Below are positions 6,655 to 33,442 of a stretch of 52,995 nucleotides of DNA, piece after piece (the stretch's first letter is position 1; every line of letters starts with the position of its first letter). The notes beneath the pieces are model-generated. The model was not told where the DNA came from. It ran no database searches and was given only the letters and a program-made list of their open reading frames with translations. The translations under genes were made by a program, and so were the position numbers. This DNA comes from Planctomycetota bacterium (GTDB lineage Bacteria; Planctomycetota; UBA8742; UBA2392), in the NCBI GenBank assembly GCA_020425515.1, contig JAGQRI010000023.1, positions 4,467 through 57,461 on the forward strand, read 5' to 3'.

Positions 6655-7971
6655 CTACTTGTAGATCTCTTGCAGCAACAACTCGCCGGCGCGGAGCAGT
6701 TTCTGGTCCATGCTGCTGGCGGCCAGAGGTAGCAGGTTGGCGCGGGTGTCCTTGCGGTACTGGTCGATGCGATCCTTGCTGCGCCCCGAGTTATCGAGCG
6801 TTCGCAGGTTGTGAATGCGGTCGCACAGTTTGACGGCGCGCACCCAGCCGGGCGCGTTGCGCAGCCCCTGGTAGTAGCGCTGCAGGCCCATGTCCTTGGG
6901 CGAGCCGTCGCGCTTGTACATCTTGGTGAGCAGCACTACCGCCCCGGACACGCCCTCACCGAACTTGTCCGTCAGTTCCTGCGGCGTGGTTTGCATGTCG
7001 TCTTCGAGCACGTCGTGCAACAGCGCCGCGATCACCTCGTCGTGCTCGCGCAGCTTGACGTCTTCCACCGCAATCAGCGCGACTTCGAGTGGGTGTGTGG
7101 CGTAAGGCGTGCCTTCGTCGCGAACCTGGCCGGCGTGGGCGCGATACATCACCTCGAGCGCCCGCGTGACGTCGTGGTGCAGCCCCGGCTCGAGCTGTTG
7201 AAACAGGCGGGCTTCCAGCGGCTCGCATTCAGCGGGGCGCGTGATTTTCACTTCGGGCGTTGCGGTCTCGGTTTCGTCTTCGTTGTCGCCGCGGTGACGG
7301 TCATCCATTACGCGGCGCAGGTCCTCGAAGCTGATTTCCTTCTCGACCATCAGCACCATCAGGTGAAAAACCAGGTCGCACATCTCGCCGACGAGGTCGC
7401 TGCGGCTCTCGCTCTTGGCCGCGACGATGGTTTCGGTCGCTTCCTCGCCGAGCTTCTTGAGGATCTTGTTGATGCCTTTCTTGAACAGGTAACTGCTGTA
7501 GCTGCCCTCCGGCAGGGTGTCCTTGCGTTCCTGCAGCAGGGTGCGCACGTCGTCCATCAATGCGCCGAGCTGCGCCCCCCACCCCTGCGCGGCTTGTGGA
7601 GCGTCCTCGATTTCACTGAGCACGGCCTTGTTCTTGAACACGGTCTTGAAGAAGCAGTCAGCCTCTCCGGTGTGGCAGGCCGGACCTTCCGGCAGCACGC
7701 GGGCGACCAGGGCGTCGCCGTCACAGTCCAGCTTCAACTCGGCGACGCGCATGATGTTGCCGCTGGTCTCGCCCTTCACCCAGAGCTGTTTGCGGCTGCG
7801 CGACCAGAATGTCACCAGGCCGGTTTCGAGGGTCTTCCTGAAGGCCTCCGCGTTCATCCAGGCGAGCGTCAGCACCGTGCCGTCGCGGGCGTCCTGCATG
7901 ACGCAGGGCATCAGCCCATTGCTGTCGAAACGCAATCCGTCGATCGGCTGGACTTCGGTAAATTCGCTCAT
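6655..7971 (-). CDS. hisIE: Three-domain fusion: phosphoribosyl-AMP cyclohydrolase (HisI), phosphoribosyl-ATP pyrophosphatase (HisE) and a SpoT/RelA/Mesh1-type HD hydrolase domain
   Basis: The start is ATG at 7971, sharing ATGA with the hisF stop; the track's 41-aa extension is rejected. HisI motifs: [29 protein letters not shown]. HisE motifs: [32 protein letters not shown]. Residues about 251-438 carry [31 protein letters not shown] and [13 protein letters not shown], the RelA/SpoT hydrolase signature. Confidence 0.85.
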
Positions 7972-8741
7972 GTTGCCGCTACCTCCGGCGGGCGTATGTT
8001 GATGCCGCGCTCGCGCAAGTACTGCTTCGCCTCGCCCACCGTGTGTTGACCGAAGTGGAAAATGCCGGCTGCCAGTACCGCGGCCGCCCCGCACTCAAGC
8101 CCCTCGGCCAGATGCTCCAGTTTACCAACGCCGCCGGAAGCTATCACCGGGACGGCAGCGGCCTGCGCCGCCTGTTTTGTGAGGTCGAGCTCGAAGCCCT
8201 TGCCGGTGCCGTCGCGATCCATACTGGTCAGCAGGATCTCGCCCGCGCCGAGCTGAACGCCTTGTTTGATCCACTCCAGCGCGTCCCTGCCCGTGTCTTC
8301 GCGCCCGCCTTTCACGTAGACGTGATAGCTGCCGTCTTCCTGTTTGCGGGCATCGACCGCGAGTACCACCGCCTGCTTGCCGAAGCGCTTGGCGCATTCG
8401 CGGATCAGTTCGGGATGGCTGACGGCCGCGCTGTTAATGGCGACCTTGTCCGCGCCGGCCCGCAACAGCCTCTCGAAGTCGTCGACGCTGCGAACGCCGC
8501 CGCCGATGGTGAAAGGGATGCTGAGCTCGAGTGCGCAGCGCCGGGCCAGCTCGACTGTGGTGTCGCGGTTGTCGCTGCTGGCCGTGATGTCGAGGAACAC
8601 CAGCTCGTCGGCTTCCTCAGCGTCGTACCGAAGCGCGCATTCAACGGGGTCGCCGGCGTCGCGCAGCCCGACGAAATTGACGCCCTTGACGACGCGACCG
8701 TCCTTCACGTCGAGGCAGACGATGATGCGTTTGGCAAGCAT
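7968..8741 (-). CDS. hisF: Imidazole glycerol phosphate synthase cyclase subunit
   Basis: [32 protein letters not shown] is a canonical HisF N-terminus, and [12 protein letters not shown] and ASGGVG are also present. The start at 8741 overlaps the upstream stop by 1 nt. The track's longer ORF is an Arg-rich extension. Confidence 0.95.
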
Positions 8742-9517
8742 CAGCCGCGCGCCGCGAGGCCTTCTTTGGCGGCCGCCACGGCTTCCTCGTAGGTGAACTC
8801 TTCCATCATCAGCGGTTTGCCTACAAGCACTCCGTGCACACCGCGCGTTGAGGCGACTTCCTTGATGTGCTCGAGCCTGGTTACGCCGCCTGTGACGATG
8901 ACGTCGGTCGAATCCGACGCGAACGACGAGGCCTCCCCGGCGCGCGGGCCGTGGCCGGTCGCGTCCGCGGTGACATCCTGGTAGATGAAGTGACGCACGC
9001 CTGCGTCCTGGATCGCGCCGGCAATGTCGGCGACGGTTGCCTTCGAGTCCTTGACCCACTCCTGGCTGACGACCCTTCCGTCCTTCACGTCAAGGAACAC
9101 AACAACGGCTTCCGCGTTGATTTCCAGGGCCTTGTGGATAAGCGAGGGGTCGTGCATGGCGGCGCTGCCAAAGGCCGCGCGGTTGACGCCGAGCTGCGTG
9201 ACGACCTTGAAGCTCTCGATGTCCCGGATGCCGCCGCTGAGCTGGACAGTCTCCTCAAACGTCTTGGCCATCTCGCCGACAACGGTCAGGTTGCGTTCGG
9301 CGCCTGCAAGCACGCTGCCGGAGTGCTCCGCCTGGCTGACGATGAACGGACCGTCGAGGTTGTAGATATGAATGGTCTTCGCGCCGGCATCGATGAACTT
9401 GCGGGCGAAACCCAGCGGCTCGACGCGGTTCGCGCGAGTGCCCATGCCGACAGATTCATAGCGCAGGGCCATGCCGCCGCGCAGCTCAATTGCCGGAATC
9501 ACCTGAAAGTCGCTCAT
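8741..9517 (-). CDS. Diverged HisA/HisF-family (beta/alpha)8-barrel paralogue of unknown function
   Basis: 258 aa. It shares MSDFxxxPAI(D/E)LRxG, NLDG, GGxR, FIYxD, (S/T)GGVxxLEH and GxxxGK with the adjacent HisA. It differs in having AIEL instead of AIDL, a roughly 30-aa insertion after NLDG, an LDVKDGRVV segment like HisF, and [10 protein letters not shown] instead of DIARDGMLNG. Confidence 0.8.
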
Positions 9518-9521
9518 ATCG

Positions 9522-10250
9522 TTATCCTCTCGCGGCCTGCAGTGCTTCTCTTACCGTAAATCTCCCCTCATACAACGCCTTGCCGATGATAAGGCCGTCA
9601 ATTCCGGCATCGGACTGCGCCGTCCGGGTGACATGTTCGAGTTCGCCGACGCCGCCTGACGCGATCACCTTCGCGCCGGTTTGGGCCAGCTCCGTGGCGC
9701 CCTGCAGGTCCGGGCCGTTCAGCATACCGTCGCGGGCGATATCTGTGTAAATGAAGCGTGAAACCCCCGCGTCGAGCATGCGTCTGGCCAGCTCCGCGGC
9801 GCTGACTTCGCTGGTTTCGACCCAGCCCTCAACGGCGACCATGCCGCCGCGCGCGTCGATGCCGACGGCAATCTTGTCACCGAAGTCCTTCGCAAGATCA
9901 GCAACCAGATCCGGGTTTCGCAGCGCCACGGTGCCGAGAACGACGCGCGAAACGCCGCGTTTGAACGCCTGCTCGACGTCGGCACGGGTACGCAGCCCGC
10001 CGCCGAATTCGACCGGGATGTCCACGCTGTTGCAGACAGCCCGCAGCACGGCGAGATTCTGCGAGGCCTCGCCGAAAGCACCATCAAGGTTGACCACATG
10101 CAGCCACTCTGCGCCTTGCCCGCCGAAATCGCGGGCGACGGCCGGGGCATCCTCGCCATAGACGGTTTGCGCGTCGGCGCGCCCTTGCTCGAGGCGCACG
10201 ACTTTCCCCTGTCGCAGGTCGATGGCCGGGTAGATGGTGAAGTCGCTCAT
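9522..10250 (-). CDS. hisA: ProFAR isomerase (1-(5-phosphoribosyl)-5-[(5-phosphoribosylamino)methylideneamino]imidazole-4-carboxamide isomerase)
   Basis: MSDFTIYPAIDLRQGKVVRLEQG, VVNLDGA, FGGGLRT, GIDARGG, IYTDIARDGMLNGP and ASGGVG are all present. The start at 10250 shares ATGA with the hisH stop. Confidence 0.9.
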   Translation of the reverse strand: MSDFTIYPAIDLRQGKVVRLEQGRADAQTVYGEDAPAVARDFGGQGAEWLHVVNLDGAFGEASQNLAVLRAVCNSVDIPVEFGGGLRTRADVEQAFKRGVSRVVLGTVALRNPDLVADLAKDFGDKIAVGIDARGGMVAVEGWVETSEVSAAELARRMLDAGVSRFIYTDIARDGMLNGPDLQGATELAQTGAKVIASGGVGELEHVTRTAQSDAGIDGLIIGKALYEGRFTVREALQAARG

Positions 10251-10849
10251 TGCTTCAGGAAGTTCTCCAGCACCTTGGCGCCGCAGCGCTGGCTTTTCTC
10301 CGGGTGGGCCTGGATGCCCCACAGGTTGCCGCGCCGTACCACACTGCAGAAGCGTTCTCCGTATTCGGTTTCGCCGATCACGTCGCCAGCTTCGGCGGGT
10401 ACGCAGACGAAGCTGTGCACGAAGTAGAAGTATGCCTCTTCGGGCAGGTCTTCAAAGAGCGGGTCGGACTGTTTGAACTCGATGCGGTTCCAGCCCATGT
10501 GAGGCAGGGGGTTGGAACCGGGTTGCAGTTCGCGCACGCGCCCGGGTATCAAGCCGAGCCCGGCTGTTTCTCCGTACTCCTCGCCTGTCTCGAACATCAG
10601 TTGCATGCCGAGGCATACGCCCAGTATGGGTTTGCCGGCGGTGGCGTGGTCGCGGATGGCGTCGGCCAGACCGCGTTCGTTTAAGGCTTTCATGCCCGCG
10701 GGGAAGCTGCCGACGCCGGGCAGTACCAGTTTGGCAGCCTCAGCTACCTGACCCGCCGTTGTCGCAACTTTGACTTCGCCCCCCGCACGTTCAAGGGCGC
10801 GAGAAATGCTGCCAAGGTTGCAGATGCCCGAATCAACTATCGTGACCAT
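10247..10849 (-). CDS. hisH: Imidazole glycerol phosphate synthase glutamine amidotransferase subunit
   Basis: 200 aa with LPGVGSF, GVCLGMQLMF (catalytic Cys) and a C-terminal HPEKS, giving the class I glutamine amidotransferase (GATase) triad layout. Confidence 0.95.
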   Translation of the reverse strand: MVTIVDSGICNLGSISRALERAGGEVKVATTAGQVAEAAKLVLPGVGSFPAGMKALNERGLADAIRDHATAGKPILGVCLGMQLMFETGEEYGETAGLGLIPGRVRELQPGSNPLPHMGWNRIEFKQSDPLFEDLPEEAYFYFVHSFVCVPAEAGDVIGETEYGERFCSVVRRGNLWGIQAHPEKSQRCGAKVLENFLKQ

Positions 10850-10854
10850 GATGA

Positions 10855-11448
10855 TTACAACACGCCCTTGGTACTCGGCACTCCCTTGCGCCTGGGGTCG
10901 TGGTCCAGTGCGTTGCGCAGGGCCTTCGTTACGGCCTTGAAGACGCCCTCGATGATGTGGTGGGTGTCGTCACCGCGCAGGACGTCGATGTGCAGGTTCA
11001 TCGGGAAGTGCGTGCTGAAGCTGCGCCAGAAATGCTCGACCATCTCCGTCGGCAGGCCCCCCACCTCTTCGCGCTTCATGTTGCCGAGTTCGCACACGAG
11101 GTACGGTCGCCCGCTGAGGTCGAGCGCGCAGCGGATCAACGCCTCGTCCATCGGGATCAATGCGCTGCCATAGCGGTTGACGCCGGCCTTGTCGCCCGCG
11201 GCCTGTTTGAAGCACTCGCCGATGGCGATGGCGATGTCTTCAACGCTGTGGTGCGCGTCCACTTCGAGGTCGCCTTTGCATTTCACGTTCAGGTTGAACA
11301 ACCCATGCTTGGTGAACAACTCGAGCATGTGGTTCAGGAAACCGATGCCGGTGTCAATCGCGTACGTCCCGTCCCCGTCGATGTTCAACTCGACGCTGAT
11401 CTCGGTTTCGCTGGTCTTGCGGCTGAATGTCGCTTCCCGCTTGCTCAT
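10855..11448 (-). CDS. hisB: Imidazoleglycerol-phosphate dehydratase (monofunctional, no phosphatase domain)
   Basis: The start is ATG at 11448 (ATGA overlap with the hisC stop), giving MSKREATFSRKTSETEISVELNIDG. Motifs HHSVEDIAIA and HHIIEGVFKA are present. At 197 aa it has no HAD N-domain. Confidence 0.95.
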   Translation of the reverse strand: MSKREATFSRKTSETEISVELNIDGDGTYAIDTGIGFLNHMLELFTKHGLFNLNVKCKGDLEVDAHHSVEDIAIAIGECFKQAAGDKAGVNRYGSALIPMDEALIRCALDLSGRPYLVCELGNMKREEVGGLPTEMVEHFWRSFSTHFPMNLHIDVLRGDDTHHIIEGVFKAVTKALRNALDHDPRRKGVPSTKGVL

Positions 11449-12521
11449 GCCACCACCGTGATTGCGTACTCCAGCGCCTTCAGGAACGCGTCGTTTTCTT
11501 CCGGCCGGCCGATGCTGACTCGCAGTGCCTTCGCCAGTCTCGGATAGTTCGAGACGTCGCGTACGAGCACGCCGCGGCTGACCATCGCCTTCCACAACTC
11601 GCGCGGGTCGCGGTTTGTCTCGAACAGTATGAAGTTTGCACGGCTCGGGTACACCTTGCAGCCCTTGTATTCGCGCAGGCGGCGGGCGACGCGCTCGCGC
11701 TCGCGCTTGATTTCGTCCACGCGCGATTTCAGCGTCACGGCGTTGTCGATGGCGGTCTCGACGGCGGCCATCGTGAAGATGTTCAAGTTGTACGGCAGCT
11801 TGGCGGCGCTGAAGATTGGTCGCGCCTCCGGGTGCGCAACCATGCAGCCGAAACGCAGCCCGGCCGTCGCCAGCGCTTTGCTGAACGTGCGCAGCACCAC
11901 CAGGTTGCGGCAGTTGCGCGTGAGCTCGATGGCCGTCTCGCCGTGGAACTCGAAGTAGGCCTCGTCGATCACCCAGAGCGCGCCGCTGGTGTTGACCAGG
12001 TGCTCCAGGTCGGTCGGGTCGATCACGCTGCCGGTCGGGTTGTTCGGCGTTGCCAGCACAACGACCGAAGCATCCTGCGAAGCCGTCTCAAGCGCCTCGG
12101 CATCGAACTGCAGCTCCTCATCGAGTCCTTCCACGGCGATGTCCGCGCCGAGCAGGTTCGCGAGCAGCTTGTAGACCGTGAACGTCGGCTGCGGAATCAC
12201 GACCTTGCGCCCGCGCTCGAGGGTGCTGACGAAGATCGCATACAGTAGCTCGTTGCTGCCGTTGCCGACCAGTACCTGCTCGGCGTCGGCGCCAATGTGG
12301 CTGGCGACCTTGGCGACGAACGCGTCCGGCTGGAACGGCGGATAGCGGTTCCAGGGCAGGTCGCGTACGCGCTCGAACACTTCCTGTTTCAGGGTTGCGG
12401 GCCAGTCCCAGGCGTTTTCGTTCTGGTTCAGCTTGATCTCGCAGTCGGGCACGTCGAGGCTGTACCCGCCGGCCAGGCCCGGGAGCTGCGTTTTGAAGTA
12501 CTTGAGCGTCGTGTTGTCCAT
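11445..12521 (-). CDS. hisC: Histidinol-phosphate aminotransferase
   Basis: 358 aa with LNQNENAWDWP, NPNNPTG and TFSKA (PLP lysine). It sits in the expected his operon position. Confidence 0.9.
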   Translation of the reverse strand: MDNTTLKYFKTQLPGLAGGYSLDVPDCEIKLNQNENAWDWPATLKQEVFERVRDLPWNRYPPFQPDAFVAKVASHIGADAEQVLVGNGSNELLYAIFVSTLERGRKVVIPQPTFTVYKLLANLLGADIAVEGLDEELQFDAEALETASQDASVVVLATPNNPTGSVIDPTDLEHLVNTSGALWVIDEAYFEFHGETAIELTRNCRNLVVLRTFSKALATAGLRFGCMVAHPEARPIFSAAKLPYNLNIFTMAAVETAIDNAVTLKSRVDEIKRERERVARRLREYKGCKVYPSRANFILFETNRDPRELWKAMVSRGVLVRDVSNYPRLAKALRVSIGRPEENDAFLKALEYAITVVA

Positions 12522-12524
12522 GCG

Positions 12525-13925
12525 CTACTTGAAGCGTTGTTCCACACTGCGGGCGTGCGCTTCAAGTTCCTCACTGCGTGCGAGTTTGACGGCCGCATCC
12601 TTGTTGGCTTCCAGCAGCTCCTTGCTGCCGCGGATTATGCTGACCTGGCGTACGAAATCGTTCACGCCCAGCGCGCTGGCCCAGCGTGCGCTGCCGGCCG
12701 TCGGCAGCACGTGGTTGGGGCCGGCGTTGTAGTCGCCGAACGCTTCCGGCGCGTACGGCCCGACGAAAATCGCGCCCGCATTGCGAAGCTGCTTGGCGTC
12801 GTTTTCGGCGTCGCTGGTCAGCACTTCGCAGTGTTCCGGCGCGATCGAGTCCGCGAAGCGAATCGCGAAGCCCTTGCTGGGCACCGTCAGGATGCCGCCG
12901 TAGTGCGCCAGCGAAGCCTCGACGATCTCCTTGCGCGGCAGGTCGGCGACCTGCTTCTCGACTTCGGCCTTCACCTTTTCCGCGGCCTCGGCGCTGTCGG
13001 TGATGCCGATGGCGGCCGCGTGCACGTCGTGCTCGGCCTGTGCAAGCATGTCGGCCGCGACGATGGCCGGGTCGGTCGAATCGTCGAACAGGACAACGAT
13101 TTCACTGGGCCCGGCAAAGCCGTCGATACCGACACGCCCGCTGAGCAACTGTTTCGCGATCGCGACGAAGATGTTGCCAGGGCCCACGATCTTGTCGACG
13201 CGCGCGATCTTTTCCGTGCCGATTGCCGCCGCCGCAACGGCCTGCGCGCCGCCGACGCGGAAGACTTCCTCGATGCCGAGGTGGTCGATCAGCGCGCACA
13301 GCAGTGGCGACTTTTCCAGGTTCTCCGGCGGGGTCAGCACGCAGATTTCCTCGACGCCAGCGGTCTGCGCCGCGACGGCCGTCATCATCAGCGTACTGGG
13401 GTAGGTTGCCGTGCCGCCGGGGACGTACAGAGCGACGCGCCTGAGCGGCTGCATGCGAACGCCGACCGAGCCGCCGTTGTCGTCGATCTGCCAGCTTTCG
13501 AGTTTTTGCTTCTCGTGAAACTTGCGCAGGCGCGGGAGGATCTCATCGGTGCAGTGCTTGAGCAGCGCTTCGTCAACGCCGTCGGCGCCCTTCATCAGGT
13601 CCAGCTTGTTGGCCTGGATGCGGTTGGTCGGCAGTTCCTCGCCGTCAAACAGGCGGGCGCACTGGCGTACCGCTTCGTCGCCCTGTTCACGCACGCGCTC
13701 GATCACGCGCTCGACAGTCGCCAGGGCGCTGTTGGGAAGCCCTTCGTAGAACGCCTCCGCGAACTGGATGAACTCGGTGTCGCCGGTGTCGCGGGCGCGT
13801 TGCATGAGTTCAGTCGGTTTGCCGCCCAGCGAGATGTCACCGCCCTCATTGCGCGATGCCAGGCGGCTCTGGAAGGCCTCGAATTCTTCCGATCCGATTT
13901 CAAACAGCTTCAGCGATTCGCTCAT
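12525..13925 (-). CDS. hisD: Histidinol dehydrogenase
   Basis: 466 aa with GPGNIFVA, EHD, AGPNHVLPT and operon context. The N-terminus is about 30 aa longer than I recall for the enteric enzyme. Confidence 0.95.
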   Translation of the reverse strand: MSESLKLFEIGSEEFEAFQSRLASRNEGGDISLGGKPTELMQRARDTGDTEFIQFAEAFYEGLPNSALATVERVIERVREQGDEAVRQCARLFDGEELPTNRIQANKLDLMKGADGVDEALLKHCTDEILPRLRKFHEKQKLESWQIDDNGGSVGVRMQPLRRVALYVPGGTATYPSTLMMTAVAAQTAGVEEICVLTPPENLEKSPLLCALIDHLGIEEVFRVGGAQAVAAAAIGTEKIARVDKIVGPGNIFVAIAKQLLSGRVGIDGFAGPSEIVVLFDDSTDPAIVAADMLAQAEHDVHAAAIGITDSAEAAEKVKAEVEKQVADLPRKEIVEASLAHYGGILTVPSKGFAIRFADSIAPEHCEVLTSDAENDAKQLRNAGAIFVGPYAPEAFGDYNAGPNHVLPTAGSARWASALGVNDFVRQVSIIRGSKELLEANKDAAVKLARSEELEAHARSVEQRFK

Positions 13926-14563
13926 GTTCTTGCCCCTTCGACTGCGGTTTTCAGATTCACCAACAAATCCCGCACTTCGGACAGTTTGGCGTACCAGGCT
14001 GCGCGGTTCACGGCCAGTCGTGCGCTGCAGTCGGCAATCTCCTCATGCACGACTAGCCCGTTTTCACGCAGTGTGGTGCCGGTTTCCACGATGTCCACTA
14101 TGTAATGCGACAGACCCAGCACCGCGCCGATTTCGACGCTGCCAGAAAGCTTGAACACGGTGCACGGGACGCCCTGCTTGCGGAAGTAGTGCTGTGCAAC
14201 CCGCGGGAATTTGCTCGCCACGCGAACGGGCGAAAGCAGGTTGTCGAGCTTGCGCTCGATTTCCGGTTTGCCGGCTACCACCATGCGGCATTTGCTGAAA
14301 CCGAGGTCCAGCGGCTCAAGCAAATCGGCGCCTACCTCCATTAACACATCCTTGCCGCTAATGCCCGCATCGGCTACGCCCTGTTCGATGTACAGCGGCG
14401 CGTCCACCGGTTTCACCAGCAGATACTCGACGCGCCCGCACTGGCTGGGCACGGTCAGCTTGCGGGTTTCGTTCAGCGATTCCGCGGGCGCGTATCCTGC
14501 GGCTTCCAGGAACGGAATCGCCTGTTTCATCATGCGGCCTGTAGGAAGGGCGACGCGCAGCAT
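13922..14563 (-). CDS. hisG: ATP phosphoribosyltransferase, short form (HisZ-dependent type)
   Basis: 213 aa, MLRVALPTGRMMKQAIPFLEAAGY, with no C-terminal regulatory domain. It is adjacent to hisZ and shares ATGA with the hisD start. Confidence 0.9.
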   Translation of the reverse strand: MLRVALPTGRMMKQAIPFLEAAGYAPAESLNETRKLTVPSQCGRVEYLLVKPVDAPLYIEQGVADAGISGKDVLMEVGADLLEPLDLGFSKCRMVVAGKPEIERKLDNLLSPVRVASKFPRVAQHYFRKQGVPCTVFKLSGSVEIGAVLGLSHYIVDIVETGTTLRENGLVVHEEIADCSARLAVNRAAWYAKLSEVRDLLVNLKTAVEGART

Positions 14564-15657
14564 CAGGCGCCTCCTTCCATTATCGCGGGTTTTCCCTGGG
14601 CGCGCAGGTCGTGAATTCGCTTGAGGGCTTCCGCGCCGTCGCCGGCTTTGACTGATTCGGACGAAGTACCCGTATAGTCGTCCCGCGAAGTTGCCTCCGC
14701 CAGCCTGGCCAGGTTGAAGCCGAACCCGACGGCCGGTACGTCCAGTTCGAACCGGTCGAACAGGCGATCGTAGCGTCCCCCGCCACCGAGGTCTTCGCCG
14801 ACCGCGTGGTGGTACACCTTGAACATGAATCCGCTGTAGTAGTCCGAGCGACGTACTTCGCCGAGATCGAGCAGCAGATTGCCGCGGACTCCGGCTTCGG
14901 TCAGCAGTGAATGCAACGACTCCAACTCGCCCAGTGCCGCTTGTGCCGCCGCGTTCAGGTTGAACTTGCGGGCGGACTCAAACACTTCCGGGCCGCCGGT
15001 CAGCAACGGCAGCGCGGCGAGTAACTCGGCCGTGTCCGAGTCGAGGCCTATGCGCTGCGCAAGCTGGCGGATGCGGCTGGGGTTCTTGTGATCGAGCGCT
15101 TCCAGCAGGCGACGCTCGGCGCGCCCTTGCTCGCCGAGCACGGCGTGGATGAATCCGGCGTGGCCGACCACGATGATGGCGTCGTCCGCCCCGACGGCCT
15201 GCAGGGATTCGCGCGCCATCATTACCACGGCCGCGTCGTACACAGGGCCGGGGGCATTTACCCATTCCAGCCCGCGCTGGGTCTGCTCGACGCGATGGCC
15301 ATGGCCGCTCGGCGCGAAGCGGTAAACGCGCCCTTCATAGCTTGCGCGAATCGGGCGGGCGTCCCGGCGCAGTTCCATGGCCAGTGCTTTCGCGGCAATC
15401 AGTGTGAAATCCGCGCGCAGAGTCAGTTGCCGGCCTTCGCGGTCAACCAGGTGGTACAGCTCGGTTTCGTCACCGGGCTCGCCAAGCCCCTCGAAGGTTT
15501 CGCCTGAGTCGAACGCAGGCAGGATGATCTCGGTGAAACCCCAGCCGCGGAACACGCCTGCAATCCGGTCGCTGATGAACTGGCGACGCGCGGCCTGCGG
15601 TCCGAACACGAGCTCGGTACCTGGCGGGAACGACAGTTGTTTTACGTCGCCTGACAT
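14563..15657 (-). CDS. hisZ: ATP phosphoribosyltransferase regulatory subunit (HisRS paralogue)
   Basis: 364 aa with a class II aaRS-like core (GFTEIILPAFD, RLCY-type region, GGGRYD). It has no anticodon-binding domain. Its stop overlaps the hisG start by 1 nt. Confidence 0.85.
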   Translation of the reverse strand: MSGDVKQLSFPPGTELVFGPQAARRQFISDRIAGVFRGWGFTEIILPAFDSGETFEGLGEPGDETELYHLVDREGRQLTLRADFTLIAAKALAMELRRDARPIRASYEGRVYRFAPSGHGHRVEQTQRGLEWVNAPGPVYDAAVVMMARESLQAVGADDAIIVVGHAGFIHAVLGEQGRAERRLLEALDHKNPSRIRQLAQRIGLDSDTAELLAALPLLTGGPEVFESARKFNLNAAAQAALGELESLHSLLTEAGVRGNLLLDLGEVRRSDYYSGFMFKVYHHAVGEDLGGGGRYDRLFDRFELDVPAVGFGFNLARLAEATSRDDYTGTSSESVKAGDGAEALKRIHDLRAQGKPAIMEGGA

Positions 15658-21409: not shown

Positions 21410-22495
21410 ATGGATGCCACCGTCGTTCCCGTATCGCTGGATCAGCGCAGCTATGACGTAGTAGTCGGCGAGCGCCTGCTTGAGCAGATGCGCGATTTCG
21501 CTGAATCGGAAAAGCCGACTTCGATTTTCCTGGTCACAGACAGCAACGTCGGCCCGCTGCATGCCGAGGCCGTACAGAACGCGATCGTTGCCAATCACGT
21601 TTTCACGGTGCCGGCCGGCGAGTCGAGCAAGAGCCTGGTCCAGCTTGGCAAGCTTTTCGATCAACTGTTCGCAACCCGCCACGTGGACCGGCATTCGCTG
21701 ATCGTTGCCTTGGGCGGCGGCATGGTGGGCGACCTTGCCGGTTTCGTCGCGGCGACGCTGTTGCGCGGCGTGCGCTGCATGCAGGTCCCGACCAGCCTGC
21801 TTGCGATGGTTGATTCCAGCGTGGGCGGCAAGACGGCCGTAAACCACGCCAGCGGCAAAAACCTGATCGGTGCATTCCACCAGCCGGCCGCCGTGTTCTG
21901 CGACATGCACTTCCTCCGGACGCTGCCTAAGCGCGAGTACGTGAGCGCGCTGGGCGAGGTCGTGAAGACCGCTGCGATTTCCGGTGAGGACCTGCTGGCA
22001 ATGCTGGAAGACTGCGCCGACGGGCTGATTGGTCGCGACCTGGTGACGCTCCATCGCGTCATTGAGGCCTGCATCCGTTTCAAGGCGGAGGTCGTAAGCG
22101 ATGACGAGATCGAAACGACAGGGCGGCGCGCAACGCTGAATTTTGGCCACACCTTGGCGCACGTGCTGGAAGCGCTATGGCCGGAGCGCTGGCTGCATGG
22201 CGAGGCTGTCTCGATCGGAATCATCGCCGCGTTGCGCCTGTCCGTTGCGCGCGCCAAGCTGGACGAATCGGTGGCGGCGCGCGTCACAGGACTGCTGCGG
22301 AAGTTCGGCCTGCCCACCGTCGTGCCCGACGAGTTGCAGGCGCGGCAGATGCTGGAGTGCATGTCCGCCGATAAGAAGCGCGCGGGCCAAGCCGTCCACT
22401 TTGTCGTGATCTCGGATGTCGGCCAGGCCGGCACTCTGCCGTGCAAGCTCGACGACGAACTCGCCGCGACGCTGCTGGGGCGCGGCGATGCATGA
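21410..22495 (+). CDS. aroB: 3-dehydroquinate synthase
   Basis: GGGMVGDLAGFVAATLLRGVRCMQVPTSLLAMVDSSVGGKTAVN and GKNLIGAFHQP are canonical AroB motifs. Confidence 0.95.
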   Translation: MDATVVPVSLDQRSYDVVVGERLLEQMRDFAESEKPTSIFLVTDSNVGPLHAEAVQNAIVANHVFTVPAGESSKSLVQLGKLFDQLFATRHVDRHSLIVALGGGMVGDLAGFVAATLLRGVRCMQVPTSLLAMVDSSVGGKTAVNHASGKNLIGAFHQPAAVFCDMHFLRTLPKREYVSALGEVVKTAAISGEDLLAMLEDCADGLIGRDLVTLHRVIEACIRFKAEVVSDDEIETTGRRATLNFGHTLAHVLEALWPERWLHGEAVSIGIIAALRLSVARAKLDESVAARVTGLLRKFGLPTVVPDELQARQMLECMSADKKRAGQAVHFVVISDVGQAGTLPCKLDDELAATLLGRGDA

Positions 22496-23653: not shown

Positions 23654-25492
23654 ATGGAACCGTTTCTCGAAGCCTTGAAGCATCGCGTCCTCGTCGGCGA
23701 CGGGGCGTACGGCACCCTGCTGGCCAGCCGAGGACTGGTGGCGGGCGGCGGCGTCGGGCCGGTGCTGAACCTGGCCAAGCCGAACTTTGTGCTGTCGGCG
23801 CACCAGGAGTACCTCGACGCGGGCTCCGATGTGATCGAGACCAACACCTTCGGCGCTGATCCACTGGCCCTCTCGGCGGCCGAAGCAAACGCTACCAGCT
23901 TCGATGTCTGCAAGGCCGGCGCCGAACTAGCCCGCCAGGCCGCCGGCGACAGGGCGTACGTGCTGGGTGCAATCGGCCCGCTGTTTCGCTCGAGCGCCAA
24001 GCTGACTGACGATGAGCGCCAGGATTGCATCGCCCAGCAAGTAAAAGGCCTGGTTGAGGGCGGCGTCGACGCAATCCTGCTGGAGACGTTCCCCGACCTG
24101 TCCGAGCTGTTGTTCGCAATCGGGGCTGTGCGCGGCGCGGCGCCCGACATCCCGCTGATCGCGCAGATGGCGTTTACGCTTGCCGGCACAACCACCACGG
24201 GTACGTCGCCGGAGCGCATGATCAAGGCTTTGGCAGACCAGCCGGTCGACGTGGTCGGCGCCAACTGCGGCGGCGGCGAGAGCGCGGCCATCGAGGTTTG
24301 CAGGCGCATGGTTGAACTGACCGAACGCCCGATCAGCATCTTCCCGAACCGCGGTCTCGCCGATTTCGACGATCACGGGCGCCCGATCTACATTGAAAGC
24401 AGCGACTACTTCGCACGCAGCGCGCGTCGTCTGGCGGACCTCGGCGCCAACCTGATCGGCGGCTGCTGCGGCACAACGCCCGAGGATATCCGCAAGCTCA
24501 AGGCGCAGATCAACGCCCGCAAGCCCAGCATGCGCCAGTTGCGTGTGCCCGCCGAGCCCGCGAAAACCGAGGAAGCCCACGAGCCGGTCAAGGTCCAGCC
24601 GACGCTCGAGGCCGACCTGCGCGAGCGCCGCGTGGTCGTCGCCGAGGTAGACCCACCCCGTGGTATCGATGCATCGCGCGAAATTGACGGCGCGCAGCAG
24701 ATTGTCGAGGCCGGGGCGGAAGCGCTGACGGTGGCCGACAACCCGCTGTCGATCATGCGCATGAGCAATCTTGCGTTCGCCGCCCTGCTGATGCAGCGCA
24801 TGGACGCGCGCATCGTGCTGCACATAGCCTGTCGCGATCGAAGCCTGATTGGCACTCAGTCGCACCTGCTGGGCGCCTATGCGATGGGGATCTCCAACAT
24901 CCTCGCGGTGACGGGGGATCCTGTCGCGACGCAGGCGTACAAGGGCAGCAGCGGCGTCTTCGACATGGCCAGCCACAAGCTGATCGAGATGATCTCGCGC
25001 TTCAACCAGGGCGAGTTCGCGACCGGCAAGGACGGCGGCGCCCGCACGAATTTCTTCGTCGGCGGGGCGTTCAACTGCGCGTCGCGCAAACTTGAAAACG
25101 AAGTCAAACGCTTCCAGCGTAAGGTGCAGGCCGGCGCGCGCTACATCATGACCCAACCGGTCTTTGACATCGAAAAGGCGCGCGAAGTTACCGCCGCCGT
25201 GCGCCCGCTCGGCGTGCCGTTGATCCTTGGCGTGATGCCTTTGGTCAGCGAGCGGAATGCCGAGTTCCTGCACCACGAGGTGCCCGGCATCGACGTGCCG
25301 GAAAGCATCCGCGAGCGCATGAAGGGCAAGCGTGGCGAAAAAGGCCGCGCGGAAGGCGTCGCGATCAGCAAGGAACTGATGGAAGAGATCGCGCCCGAGG
25401 TGCAGGGTTACTACCTGATCACGCCGATGAACCGCTACGAAATGATCGCCGAGCTTACGCGGCACGCACGCAGCTTCGCCAACGTTCCGTAA
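23654..25492 (+). CDS. Bifunctional homocysteine S-methyltransferase / 5,10-methylenetetrahydrofolate reductase (YitJ-like fusion)
   Basis: The N-half has the Hcy-binding domain pattern (ETNTFGA, GANCGGG, IGGCCGTTPEDI). The C-half is MTHFR-like (LTVADNP, ACRDR, ILAVTGDP, QPVFD). Confidence 0.9.
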   Translation: MEPFLEALKHRVLVGDGAYGTLLASRGLVAGGGVGPVLNLAKPNFVLSAHQEYLDAGSDVIETNTFGADPLALSAAEANATSFDVCKAGAELARQAAGDRAYVLGAIGPLFRSSAKLTDDERQDCIAQQVKGLVEGGVDAILLETFPDLSELLFAIGAVRGAAPDIPLIAQMAFTLAGTTTTGTSPERMIKALADQPVDVVGANCGGGESAAIEVCRRMVELTERPISIFPNRGLADFDDHGRPIYIESSDYFARSARRLADLGANLIGGCCGTTPEDIRKLKAQINARKPSMRQLRVPAEPAKTEEAHEPVKVQPTLEADLRERRVVVAEVDPPRGIDASREIDGAQQIVEAGAEALTVADNPLSIMRMSNLAFAALLMQRMDARIVLHIACRDRSLIGTQSHLLGAYAMGISNILAVTGDPVATQAYKGSSGVFDMASHKLIEMISRFNQGEFATGKDGGARTNFFVGGAFNCASRKLENEVKRFQRKVQAGARYIMTQPVFDIEKAREVTAAVRPLGVPLILGVMPLVSERNAEFLHHEVPGIDVPESIRERMKGKRGEKGRAEGVAISKELMEEIAPEVQGYYLITPMNRYEMIAELTRHARSFANVP

Positions 25493-31388: not shown

Positions 31389-32591
<1,203 letters not shown>

Positions 32592-32599
32592 GTCTCGTC

Positions 32600-33442
32600 T
32601 CAGGTCGTCTTGAGTCTGGGTTCAACGCTGTCGTAGCTGCCGACCATCTGCAGATAGGTCGTGTGCTTTCGAAGCTCGGCCATGGCGGTGCGAATCTTGG
32701 TGTCTTCGTAGCGACCGGGGAATTCGACGAACACGGTGTAGTCCCACTTGTTGGTCCGGTTGGGACGCGCGAAGACGGAAGTCAGGTTGATTTCGTTGCT
32801 TCGGAAGGCCGCCAGCGCATCCATCAGCGCGCCGGGCTGGTGCTTGAGTTCGAACATCACGGTCGTGCGCACGTCCGCGGCGTCGTCCGGCGGCAGTTGC
32901 TTGTCCTTGGTCAGCGCGATGAAGCGGGTCACGCCGGTCACCGAGTTCTCGATGCTGGGCTGAAGTACTTTCAGCCCGAAGATGCTGGCCGCGAAGTCAC
33001 CGCAGACCGTGGCCTCGGTGGCGTCGCCGCGCTGGACCATTGCCGCCAATGACTCGGCGCTGTCGTAGCGCGCGATGATCTCGATATCTTTCTGCATGCT
33101 CAGGTACGTGCTGCACATGTTCAGGATCGCGGGGTGTGCGTAGACGCGCTTTACGCCGCCGTCGGCGTCCTTCTGGCCGGCGAGGTTGTAGCGCTCGTGA
33201 AAATGGATCTCGCGCGCGAAGTAGACGCGGGTGGCGCGCAGCAGGTCGAGGATATCGTAGCTCATGCCGCGTTCGCTGTTTTCGACACGGACGACGCCGT
33301 ATTGCACCTGCTCGTCGGCAAGCGCGTCGAACACGCCTTGGGCCGTGTTGGACGGGACGGTGGCGATGTCGCGGTCGGCGAACATCCATGCTGCGGCAGC
33401 CTCGGCATATGAGCCTCGCTGCCCGTGGAAAGCGATCTTCAC
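32600..33442 (-). CDS. pheA: Prephenate dehydratase with C-terminal ACT domain
   Basis: MKIAFHGQRGSYAEAAA, TRF and the ACT region TTVMFELKHQPGALMDALAAF with ESRP-like FARP are present. There is no chorismate mutase domain. Confidence 0.9.
   Translation of the reverse strand: MKIAFHGQRGSYAEAAAAWMFADRDIATVPSNTAQGVFDALADEQVQYGVVRVENSERGMSYDILDLLRATRVYFAREIHFHERYNLAGQKDADGGVKRVYAHPAILNMCSTYLSMQKDIEIIARYDSAESLAAMVQRGDATEATVCGDFAASIFGLKVLQPSIENSVTGVTRFIALTKDKQLPPDDAADVRTTVMFELKHQPGALMDALAAFRSNEINLTSVFARPNRTNKWDYTVFVEFPGRYEDTKIRTAMAELRKHTTYLQMVGSYDSVEPRLKTT

Follow-up and report, generated by a model that had tools for sequence, protein, structure and literature searches.

A 52,995-nucleotide stretch of the genome of a Planctomycetota bacterium (NCBI GenBank assembly GCA_020425515.1, contig JAGQRI010000023.1, positions 4,467 to 57,461 of the forward strand; hereafter the window) carries a compact histidine biosynthesis operon on its minus strand at 6.6–15.7 kb. 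Its gene order is hisZ-G-D-C-B-H-A-X-F-IE::HD, where X is the name used here for an extra barrel gene lying between hisA and hisF, and HD is a hydrolase domain of the RelA/SpoT type fused to the C-terminus of HisIE (Table 1). X encodes 258 aa from an ATG start codon, which is separated from the hisA stop codon (TAA) by the four nucleotides 'cgat' and is preceded, 7–13 nt on its 5' side and within the 3' end of hisA, by the Shine-Dalgarno sequence GAGAGGA. At its other end, X shares one base of its TGA stop codon with the ATG of hisF ('TGATG'). The 4-nt gap and the 1-nt overlap agree with a preliminary description of this DNA, and translational coupling of X within the his operon is supported.

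Table 1. Coordinates of the features discussed, numbered from the first nucleotide of the window.
Feature	Position	Strand	Basis
X: HisA-derived (βα)8 barrel, lineage-specific paralogue	8741..9517	-	Pfam/NCBIfam scores, orthologues, AF2 model
Canonical hisA, probable parent of X	9522..10250	-	Family models, residue comparison
Canonical hisF	7968..8741	-	Family models
HisIE part of the fusion protein	7255..7971	-	Family models
HD domain, RelA/SpoT-hydrolase type (HD_4), at HisIE C-terminus	6658..7254	-	Family models, motifs, co-occurrence with X
hisIE::HD_4 fusion, whole ORF	6655-7971	-	
hisZ	14563-15657	-	
hisG, short form	13922-14563	-	
hisH	10247-10849	-	
X Glu11 codon, in place of the β1 catalytic Asp	9485..9487	-	Residue comparison
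X loop-1 β-hairpin, residues 16-32	9422..9472	-	Alignment, AF2 model
X 13-aa insertion in loop β2α2, residues 59-71	9305..9343	-	Alignment, AF2 model
X GGIRD, residues 95-99; N-terminal (distal) phosphate site, kept	9221..9235	-	Alignment; PMC9088769, PMC13055916
X W154 codon, equivalent of the ProFAR-stacking W145	9056..9058	-	Alignment; PMC9088769
X remodelled loop 6, residues 180-191	8945..8980	-	Residue comparison; PMC13055916

X matched the Pfam family His_biosynth (PF00977) with 132 bits (E 2.5e-38, residues 5–241; gathering threshold 23.6). The best NCBIfam model was that of HisA (TIGR00007), on which X scored 129.3 bits, below the cutoff of 228.95, and on the HisF model (TIGR00735) it reached 33 bits against a cutoff of 294.55. 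The canonical products of the window were both above the cutoffs of their own models, with 251.8 bits for HisA on TIGR00007 and 339 bits for HisF on TIGR00735. X is 33% identical to the HisA of the window and 27% identical to part of its HisF. In strand β4, the position of the HisH-activating 'DK' of HisF, which we take to be D98/K99 of the T. maritima enzyme, reads 'NR' in X and 'SR' in HisA. The open reading frame (ORF) and the family scores thus confirm the diverged 258-aa HisA-type paralogue first described at this site. An AlphaFold2 (AF2) model of X (pLDDT 91.9, pTM 0.90) is a (βα)8 barrel in which loop 1 forms a β-hairpin and residues 62–66 form a disordered tip (pLDDT <50). The structures closest to this model were Salmonella enterica HisA (Foldseek E 1e-16) and Mycobacterium tuberculosis PriA, while PriA proteins were the best sequence matches in the PDB (92 bits). 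Current database entries label X proteins either 'hypothetical' or, wrongly, as isomerase of ProFAR, the HisA substrate.

A word-indexed protein search recovered 47 X proteins with identities from 100% down to 48%, followed by a drop to ~33%, where ordinary HisA proteins begin. All of those that bear a taxon label come from metagenome-assembled genomes (MAGs) named 'Planctomycetes bacterium', and the source habitat was activated sludge. An exhaustive profile search of 1.84 billion cluster representatives returned a single X cluster (P0026, 50% level, 438 bits), then HisA-HisF fusions, for which two domains were scored, and then single-domain HisA proteins led by the lineage's own (P0124, 199 bits). 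Among these representatives no X-type protein was found outside this uncultured Planctomycetota lineage. No RNA sequencing runs holding X were found.

Selection on X was assessed with the dN/dS ratio (ω) of Nei and Gojobori (NG86), which ranged from 0.11 to 0.42: in the least saturated pair it was 0.11 for X, 0.13 for hisA and 0.11 for hisF, and in deeper pairs, in which dS is saturated, that of X was 0.25–0.42. X could in principle be a decaying recent duplicate of hisA, and at depth it does evolve somewhat faster than hisA (dN ~0.45 versus ~0.32) and has been lost in a few lineages. Against this stand an ORF kept intact in 45 full-length orthologues, the most diverged of which is 48% identical, 41 columns that do not vary among them, ω values of 0.08–0.42 with those of the cassettes described below included, and X-specific loops that are the most conserved parts of the protein. 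Decay is refuted by these data, and X is a genuine selected gene, a lineage-specific copy of hisA. Two other ORFs that overlap X were rejected. A 230-aa antisense ORF (8867-9559, plus strand) is a high-GC artefact, since conservation, Pfam matches and dN/dS all favour the minus frame, and a GTG-extended 'hisF' of 363 aa (7968-9059, minus strand) is spurious; long spurious ORFs of this kind are typical of DNA with 63–65% GC.

In a tree of X, HisA and PriA proteins, built with a simple neighbour-joining (NJ) method, X formed a monophyletic long branch beside the HisA clade of its own lineage and apart from PriA. The derived Asn of an 'NLDG' motif was present in 11 of 11 X proteins and in 7 of 7 HisA proteins of the lineage, as compared with 9 of 67 other HisA proteins. 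Because of this placement and the common Asn, X most probably originated by tandem duplication of hisA before the clade radiated, as judged from these comparisons. The X and HisA subtrees agree on the pairings of L001 with L003 and of L005 with the window, and disagree on L007. Neither the family models nor the profile search nor the tree grouped X cleanly with a characterised family.

Two genes downstream of X, HisIE carries the SpoT-like C-terminal domain, which the preliminary description had overlooked. This domain of ~199 aa matched HD_4 with 61 bits (threshold 27.2) and, in part, TIGR00691 with 77 bits, and it matched solved Rel, SpoT and small alarmone hydrolase (SAH) structures with E values from 9e-18 to 1e-8. 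The motifs of RelA/SpoT hydrolases are intact (GQxR...PYxxHP; HDxxED, here HDVLED; and DRxHN); they are invariant in an alignment of five genomes and also in 16 genomes in which HD is paired with X, save for the final Pro of the first motif. When the species representatives of GTDB were searched with the domain, 19 species of the clade were found at 59–87% identity. The next matches, at 37% or less, were stand-alone HD proteins of Sumerlaeota/BRC1, candidate phyla radiation (CPR) bacteria, DPANN archaea and Thaumarchaeota. The fusion to HisIE is kept in ~18 species of the clade. A search with HisIE only listed unfused HisIE proteins of the clade at 63–78% identity; this listing is incomplete for fused forms, in that the fusion proteins of 433–438 aa, expected as top scorers, were not among the matches listed. 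We found no description of the HisIE::HD architecture in the literature searched. A census of 2011, in which one planctomycete genome was sampled, counted zero RelA/SpoT homologues in Planctomycetes, Verrucomicrobia and Chlamydiae (PMC3153485). Because that census reported none in the phylum, the HD domain may, by analogy with metazoan Mesh1, be an orphan hydrolase that acts on a substrate other than an alarmone.

X and HD proved to be closely associated across loci. The complete order hisZ-G-D-C-B-H-A-X-F-IE::HD was found in five distant genomes that span the full divergence of X. Among the 19 GTDB species representatives with this HD, 16 have hisA-X-hisF-hisIE::HD; of the remaining three, one contig is too short to judge and two, loci L023 and L025, are exceptions. 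The same four-gene order was present in eight metagenome contigs. In addition, at least six contigs carry X and a stand-alone HD gene as a two-gene cassette with no his genes. At L025 the ancestral flanks have been kept, with genes for an ABC ATPase and a cytochrome c on the upstream side and for a purine DNA glycosylase and a methyltransferase on the downstream side, and all his genes are gone, leaving a 258-aa X with all its motifs intact and, 15 nt downstream, a stand-alone HD of 209 aa. This arrangement recurs in L058, from an independent Joint Genome Institute (JGI) sample, whose X is 93% identical to that of L025, and in L063, a MAG contig of 35.6 kb. In three further samples (L059–L061) the cassette occupies another locus, downstream of a sigma-54 activator, and X and HD are 3 nt apart. 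GCA_964652605.1 is a MAG with the cassette only. Within the cassettes, ω was 0.08–0.20 for X and 0.09–0.23 for HD, indicative of purifying selection on both.

Conversely, at L065 a his operon was found without X. This operon, hisZGDCBH-hisA-hisF-hisIE, encodes proteins 67–88% identical to those of the window. Only a 48-codon ORF lies between its hisA and hisF (L065:6749-6895); the first 15 residues of this ORF are those of the X N-terminus and the rest is unrelated, which identifies the ORF as a deletion scar of X. HisIE of L065 (231 aa) stops in the linker, and the HD domain is gone. We had considered whether L065 represents the same genome type as the cassettes and rejected this, as its His proteins are not nearest to the cassette subclade; they are closest to the group of the window, and L065 was therefore treated as an independent loss.

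The joint retention in the cassettes and the joint loss in L065 indicate that X and HD behave as a unit, and these arrangements make a functional coupling of the two highly probable. Distances between X proteins also followed those between the corresponding HisIE-N (r 0.90) and HD (0.83) sequences more closely than those of hisA (0.67), which lends weak support to the coupling, given that pairwise distances are not independent. Since X is found in cassettes without his genes and has been lost from the operon of L065, histidine synthesis does not require it, and it has no fixed link to HisA or HisF.

The same loci bear on the proposal that X belongs to the histidine pathway itself, either as a second ProFAR isomerase or isozyme or as a channel or stoichiometric partner linking HisA and HisF. 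In favour of this, X sits between the two genes with translational coupling, most genomes of the clade share the hisA-X-hisF order, and ProFAR-binding residues are kept. We nevertheless consider a histidine role improbable: X is under purifying selection in cassettes without hisA or hisF, it has been lost from one his operon (L065) and replaced in another (L023), it is altered at positions universal in HisA (Glu for the Asp, Tyr for L20, Q180 for the Thr, and both flanking residues, Arg and Gly, of 'RDG'), and its 129 bits compare with a HisA cutoff of 229. The partnership with HisA or HisF that was raised in the preliminary description is directly contradicted by the his-less cassettes and by the his operon that lacks X.

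It could alternatively be supposed that the module supplies a missing histidinol-phosphate phosphatase, with HD hydrolysing histidinol phosphate and X as an accessory or substrate-binding subunit. The hisZGDCBHAF-IE operon has no gene for this phosphatase: hisB encodes IGPD only, and none was found within the operon (for the window, 10855-15657, minus strand) in any genome examined, including L065. HD domains are phosphohydrolases, and genes for histidinol-phosphate phosphatases frequently lie outside his operons, which would fit free-standing cassettes. However, HisN-type phosphatases are general in Planctomycetia (PMC5516325), so that a gap in the pathway is not demonstrated, and the operon of L065 works without X and HD. 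Moreover, HD keeps the full set of SpoT/Mesh1 pyrophosphohydrolase motifs, and the two-phosphate pocket of X with its stacking Trp is far larger than histidinol phosphate would need. We consider this role improbable as well.

Structural features of the putative active site were examined by comparing 45 full-length X proteins with 74 HisA proteins, with residue roles taken from PMC9088769, PMC5404923 and PMC13055916 (Se and Mt denote the S. enterica and M. tuberculosis proteins). Several ligand-binding residues of HisA are kept in X. R98 (Se R83 / Mt R85), which grips the distal phosphate, and W154, the counterpart of the Trp that stacks on ProFAR, are invariant, and H50 is retained. In the GG phosphate motifs, G95, G96 and G211 are invariant and G210 is present in 43 of 45 proteins; the SGGIR and TGGV motifs first reported for the window are therefore borne out. 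Position 19, equivalent to the ProFAR-binding R19, is Arg in 39 proteins, Lys in 5 and Gln in 1.

On the reacting side, the β1 catalytic base (Se D7 / Mt D11) is Asp in 74/74 HisA and Glu (E11) in 45/45 X, which extends to the whole family the change from AIDL to AIEL already noted in the window. The β5 Asp (Se D129 / Mt D130), D143 in X, is Asp in 40 of the 45 proteins and Asn, Ser or Ala in the other five. The Thr of the 'TD' motif (Mt T170), found in all 74 HisA proteins, is Q180 in all 45 X proteins; in HisA-family enzymes the β5 Asp and Mt T170 stabilise a ProFAR-specific conformation of loop 5 (PMC13055916). The position of the catalytic acid, residue 185 (Se D176 / Mt D175, the Asp of 'RDG'), is occupied by Asp in 37 X proteins and by Glu in the other 8; the Arg and Gly of 'RDG' (positions 184 and 186) are Ala or Ser, with one Thr at 186. 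Loop 6 has thus changed, as had been proposed, although not by the substitution of ATGHG for a HisA loop: RDGMLNG aligns residue for residue with ADATGHG, and the catalytic-acid Asp, D185, is kept.

Two further elements set X apart. In loop 1, residues Y20, E21, G24, G26, T27, R28 and R31 are specific to X and invariant, with position 20 being Leu in all HisA proteins compared and Tyr in 45/45 X. In loop β2α2 there is an insertion, referred to here as the lid, of 12–13 aa rather than the ~30 aa first estimated. Three of its residues (E64, G67 and S68) never vary, and a fourth, H65, is conserved as His in 44 of 45 proteins. Loop 1 and the inserted lid are nearly identical across the family and far more conserved than the remainder of the protein. 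The segment 'LDVKDGRVV', originally taken for a HisF-like strand, is strand β5; its resemblance to β1 of HisF stems from the half-barrel symmetry of the fold, and within the X family the motif occurs in a majority of proteins only. A chimera with hisF, suggested by this segment, was rejected on the same grounds. Taken together, our reading of these residues is that the half of the pocket that holds the AICAR ribotide of ProFAR (AICAR, 5-aminoimidazole-4-carboxamide ribotide) appears preserved, and that the half that holds the reacting sugar appears rebuilt, yet with two carboxylates.

The residue comparison also addresses whether X might replace TrpF as an isomerase of phosphoribosylanthranilate (PRA) in the manner of PriA, one of the roles put forward in the preliminary description. 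PriA proteins are the best PDB sequence matches, actinobacterial priA likewise lies within the his operon, and the new loop-1 arginines R28 and R31 could bind a carboxylate. No trp genes, trpF included, were found anywhere in the window, and a T. maritima TrpF query retrieved no trpF from 688 kb of the loci compared; these results cover the loci concerned and are uninformative about whole genomes. Nonetheless, the position of PriA R143 is Q152 in X (Gln in 43 of 45), and that of PriA S81 (94 in X) is not conserved, being Ser, Gly or Ala. Conversely, the equivalents of W145 and R85, which the specialised SubTrpF and SubTrpF2 enzymes have lost (PMC5404923; PMC13055916), are invariant in X. A TrpF role is very unlikely because X keeps these ProFAR residues and is without those that bind PRA; it also lies apart from PriA in the tree, and such a role would leave the coupling to an HD hydrolase unexplained.

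In the explanation that we tentatively favour, X descends from hisA, is functional and specific to this lineage, and, no longer a histidine-pathway isomerase, forms one half of a two-part accessory module with HD. X and HD arose in the same clade, and both are under purifying selection in operon and cassette contexts alike. Because both GG sites, R98 and the stacking W154 are kept, X would be expected still to bind a long, bis-phosphorylated ligand of the ProFAR type. Its two catalytic carboxylates may act as base (Glu11) and acid (Asp/Glu185), and its substrate presumably differs from that of HisA through the rebuilt proximal half-site and the lid. This rebuilt region comprises Q180 in place of Thr, the lost Arg and Gly of 'RDG', a dispensable β5 Asp, Y20/E21/T27/R28/R31 and the E64-H65-G67-S68 lid. 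HD would then act as a (pyro)phosphohydrolase, either on the same molecule or on the one that follows it. Whether X is catalytic, and not merely ligand-binding, is a point on which we judge the indications from its residues to be evenly balanced; a new sugar-phosphate isomerase, as had been suggested at the outset, is possible.

Speculatively, X could isomerise a sugar by acid/base chemistry of the Amadori type, its substrate being a modified ProFAR-like intermediate that is beyond the reach of canonical HisA. The extra arginines and the lid might recognise an added anionic group, such as a (pyro)phosphate at the 2'/3' position of the nucleotide ribose, and HD might remove this group; the histidine pathway would thereby have a side branch or a route for clean-up. 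ProFAR is known to be chemically labile (PMC3485032). A modified ProFAR-like bis-phosphate as the specific substrate is nevertheless a doubtful proposition. Similarly doubtful, in its strong form, is the notion that X and HD constitute a hitherto unknown two-enzyme branch of nucleotide and histidine metabolism, or that X is the first ProFAR/ZMP-type sensor to gate an alarmone-type hydrolase (ZMP, 5-aminoimidazole-4-carboxamide ribonucleotide). In such a branch, an adenine nucleotide with an extra 2'/3'-(pyro)phosphate ((p)ppApp, pAp or of CoA/NADP type) would enter via HisG and HisIE, X, Glu-based and with its arginine-rich lid, would isomerise the modified ProFAR, and HD would strip the extra (pyro)phosphate.

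The main rival to the two-enzyme module, which we hold to be unlikely but less so than the other alternatives, is that X is a pseudo-enzyme that senses a ligand, binding a metabolite of the histidine/purine pathways (ProFAR, its HisA product PRFAR or ZMP) and thereby regulating the HD hydrolase. The remaining alternatives rank, from more to less probable, as the phosphatase module, a residual histidine-pathway role, TrpF and a decaying duplicate. For the sensor, the binding residues R98, W154 and the GG motifs are invariant, whereas X can do without the classical β5 Asp and has a different base; the conservation of loops 1 and 2 is as high as is typical for an obligate interface; X and HD are retained and lost together; and HD has all the catalytic motifs of the SpoT type. 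On the other side, both catalytic positions (E11 and D/E185) are carboxylates in 45/45 X proteins. In addition, RelA/SpoT homologues have been reported absent from the Planctomycetes-Verrucomicrobia-Chlamydiae (PVC) superphylum (PMC3153485; one planctomycete genome sampled), so that an alarmone to regulate may not exist.

Several observations weigh against the accessory module as we propose it. The β5 Asp, essential in HisA, is lost in 5 of 45 X proteins, and the Asp of 'TD' is Asn in one; X could on this basis be only a ligand binder. His-less cassette genomes, if truly without histidine biosynthesis, could hold no substrate derived from ProFAR, and we know of no candidate modified intermediate. 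The linkage of X to HD has exceptions as well: L023, on contig JADLAK010000041.1, keeps HisIE::HD and has a PDDEXK_3 gene (PF13366, 123 bits; L023:3899-4312) at the position of X, the 1.8-kb contig L069 carries X, hisF and an unfused HisIE, and in L067 the HD is truncated, with its first 68 residues gone. Finally, MAGs and metagenome contigs supplied all of the data, and the joint loss in L065 was seen on one contig.

Some of these loci have features of their own. The hisA of L023 encodes a small insertion in loop β2α2 (DGGSGPAAANM). At L067 (L067:727-1125) and L068, a 224-aa HisIE has immediately after it an ORF of its own, of 132 aa, which covers HD residues 69-192 and is thus without the N-terminal third and its GQxR/HP motif; this is probably a decaying HD domain. 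At L004 (L004:9223-10001), which is from the same species as L003, X, hisF and hisIE::HD were called and no gene was called at the position of hisA, probably owing to a frameshift or an assembly error. At L055 (L055:180-2333), the first ~100 codons of an X nearly identical to that of the window continue in frame as part of an ORF of 717 aa, the rest of which bears no relation to X, on a contig with 2.25x coverage; the locus, most likely a chimera of assembly, was left out of the evidence. Elsewhere in the window, a 612-aa protein (23654-25492, plus strand) combines a homocysteine S-methyltransferase domain with a methylenetetrahydrofolate reductase domain, and genes for aromatic amino-acid metabolism (3-dehydroquinate synthase, prephenate dehydratase and a class I/II aminotransferase) lie at 21410-22495 (plus strand) and 31389-33442 (minus strand). 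None of X, HD or the HisIE-HD fusion matched a PADLOC defence model.

HisA, PriA and TrpF form the textbook system for the gain of function by (βα)8 barrels after duplication. Function-shifted paralogues of the HisA family are already known (PriA, SubHisA, SubTrpF, SubTrpF2 and AdeK), and most other natural examples are from Actinomycetota, or else the product of laboratory evolution; X is a probable natural case of neofunctionalisation outside that phylum. It is an old and strongly selected duplicate in which a Glu base, a new conserved lid and a reworked reacting half-site occur together with an unaltered distal site of the ProFAR type, and natural genetic experiments (genomes with the cassette only, with both parts lost, or with X replaced) point to a specific partner. 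In the literature searched, which covered HisA paralogues in Planctomycetes and the joining of SAH domains to histidine enzymes or TIM barrels, we found no description of a Glu-base HisA variant with this lid, nor of its pairing with a SpoT-type HD domain. Were the substrate of HD together with X to be identified, it might bring to light a new metabolite, or else a new reaction, of repair or branching, among the labile intermediates of histidine synthesis.

Compared with HisA itself (EC 5.3.1.16, TIGR00007), X has the same (βα)8 fold, both GG sites, R98 for R83, W154 for W145, H50 and the loop-6 acid. It differs in its β1 Glu, Tyr20, Gln180, the absence of the 'RDG' Arg and Gly, a dispensable β5 Asp and the 13-aa lid, and in that a complete his operon can exist without it (L065) and it is kept without his genes. 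PriA, SubHisA, SubTrpF and SubTrpF2 of Actinomycetota are likewise barrels of the HisA family, in which altered gene content was followed by a shift in specificity, and SubTrpF2, like X, coexists with a canonical HisA; unlike these proteins, X is without R143 and S81, keeps the ProFAR determinants that SubTrpF lost, belongs to another phylum and is separate in the tree. AdeK, a PriA homologue of the adechlorin / 2'-amino-dA clusters that coexists with PriA, is thought to process a ribose-modified intermediate of the ProFAR type (PMC13055916). As an extra HisA-family copy beside the housekeeping enzyme, it provides a precedent for a role on a modified intermediate. However, AdeK lies in a nucleoside-antibiotic cluster, keeps Asp11 and is under relaxed selection, whereas X lies in a his operon or an HD cassette and has Glu11 and a new lid. 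No cluster of that kind (with homologues of hisG, SAICAR synthetase or SDR) was found near X, which is flanked either by his genes or by genes for a sigma-54 activator and for a membrane protein.

For the sensor alternative only, an analogy is offered by HisZ, encoded in the same operon, although its fold is unrelated to that of X. HisZ is a paralogue of histidyl-tRNA synthetase (HisRS) that serves as the regulatory subunit of short HisG. The HD partner, for its part, shares the GQxR, HDxxED and DRxHN motifs and its structure matches with small alarmone hydrolases and Mesh1, and differs from them in being fused to HisIE or paired with a HisA-like barrel. Like metazoan Mesh1, it would be an orphan hydrolase of the SpoT type, here in a phylum reported to be without (p)ppGpp synthetases (PMC3153485; one planctomycete genome sampled).

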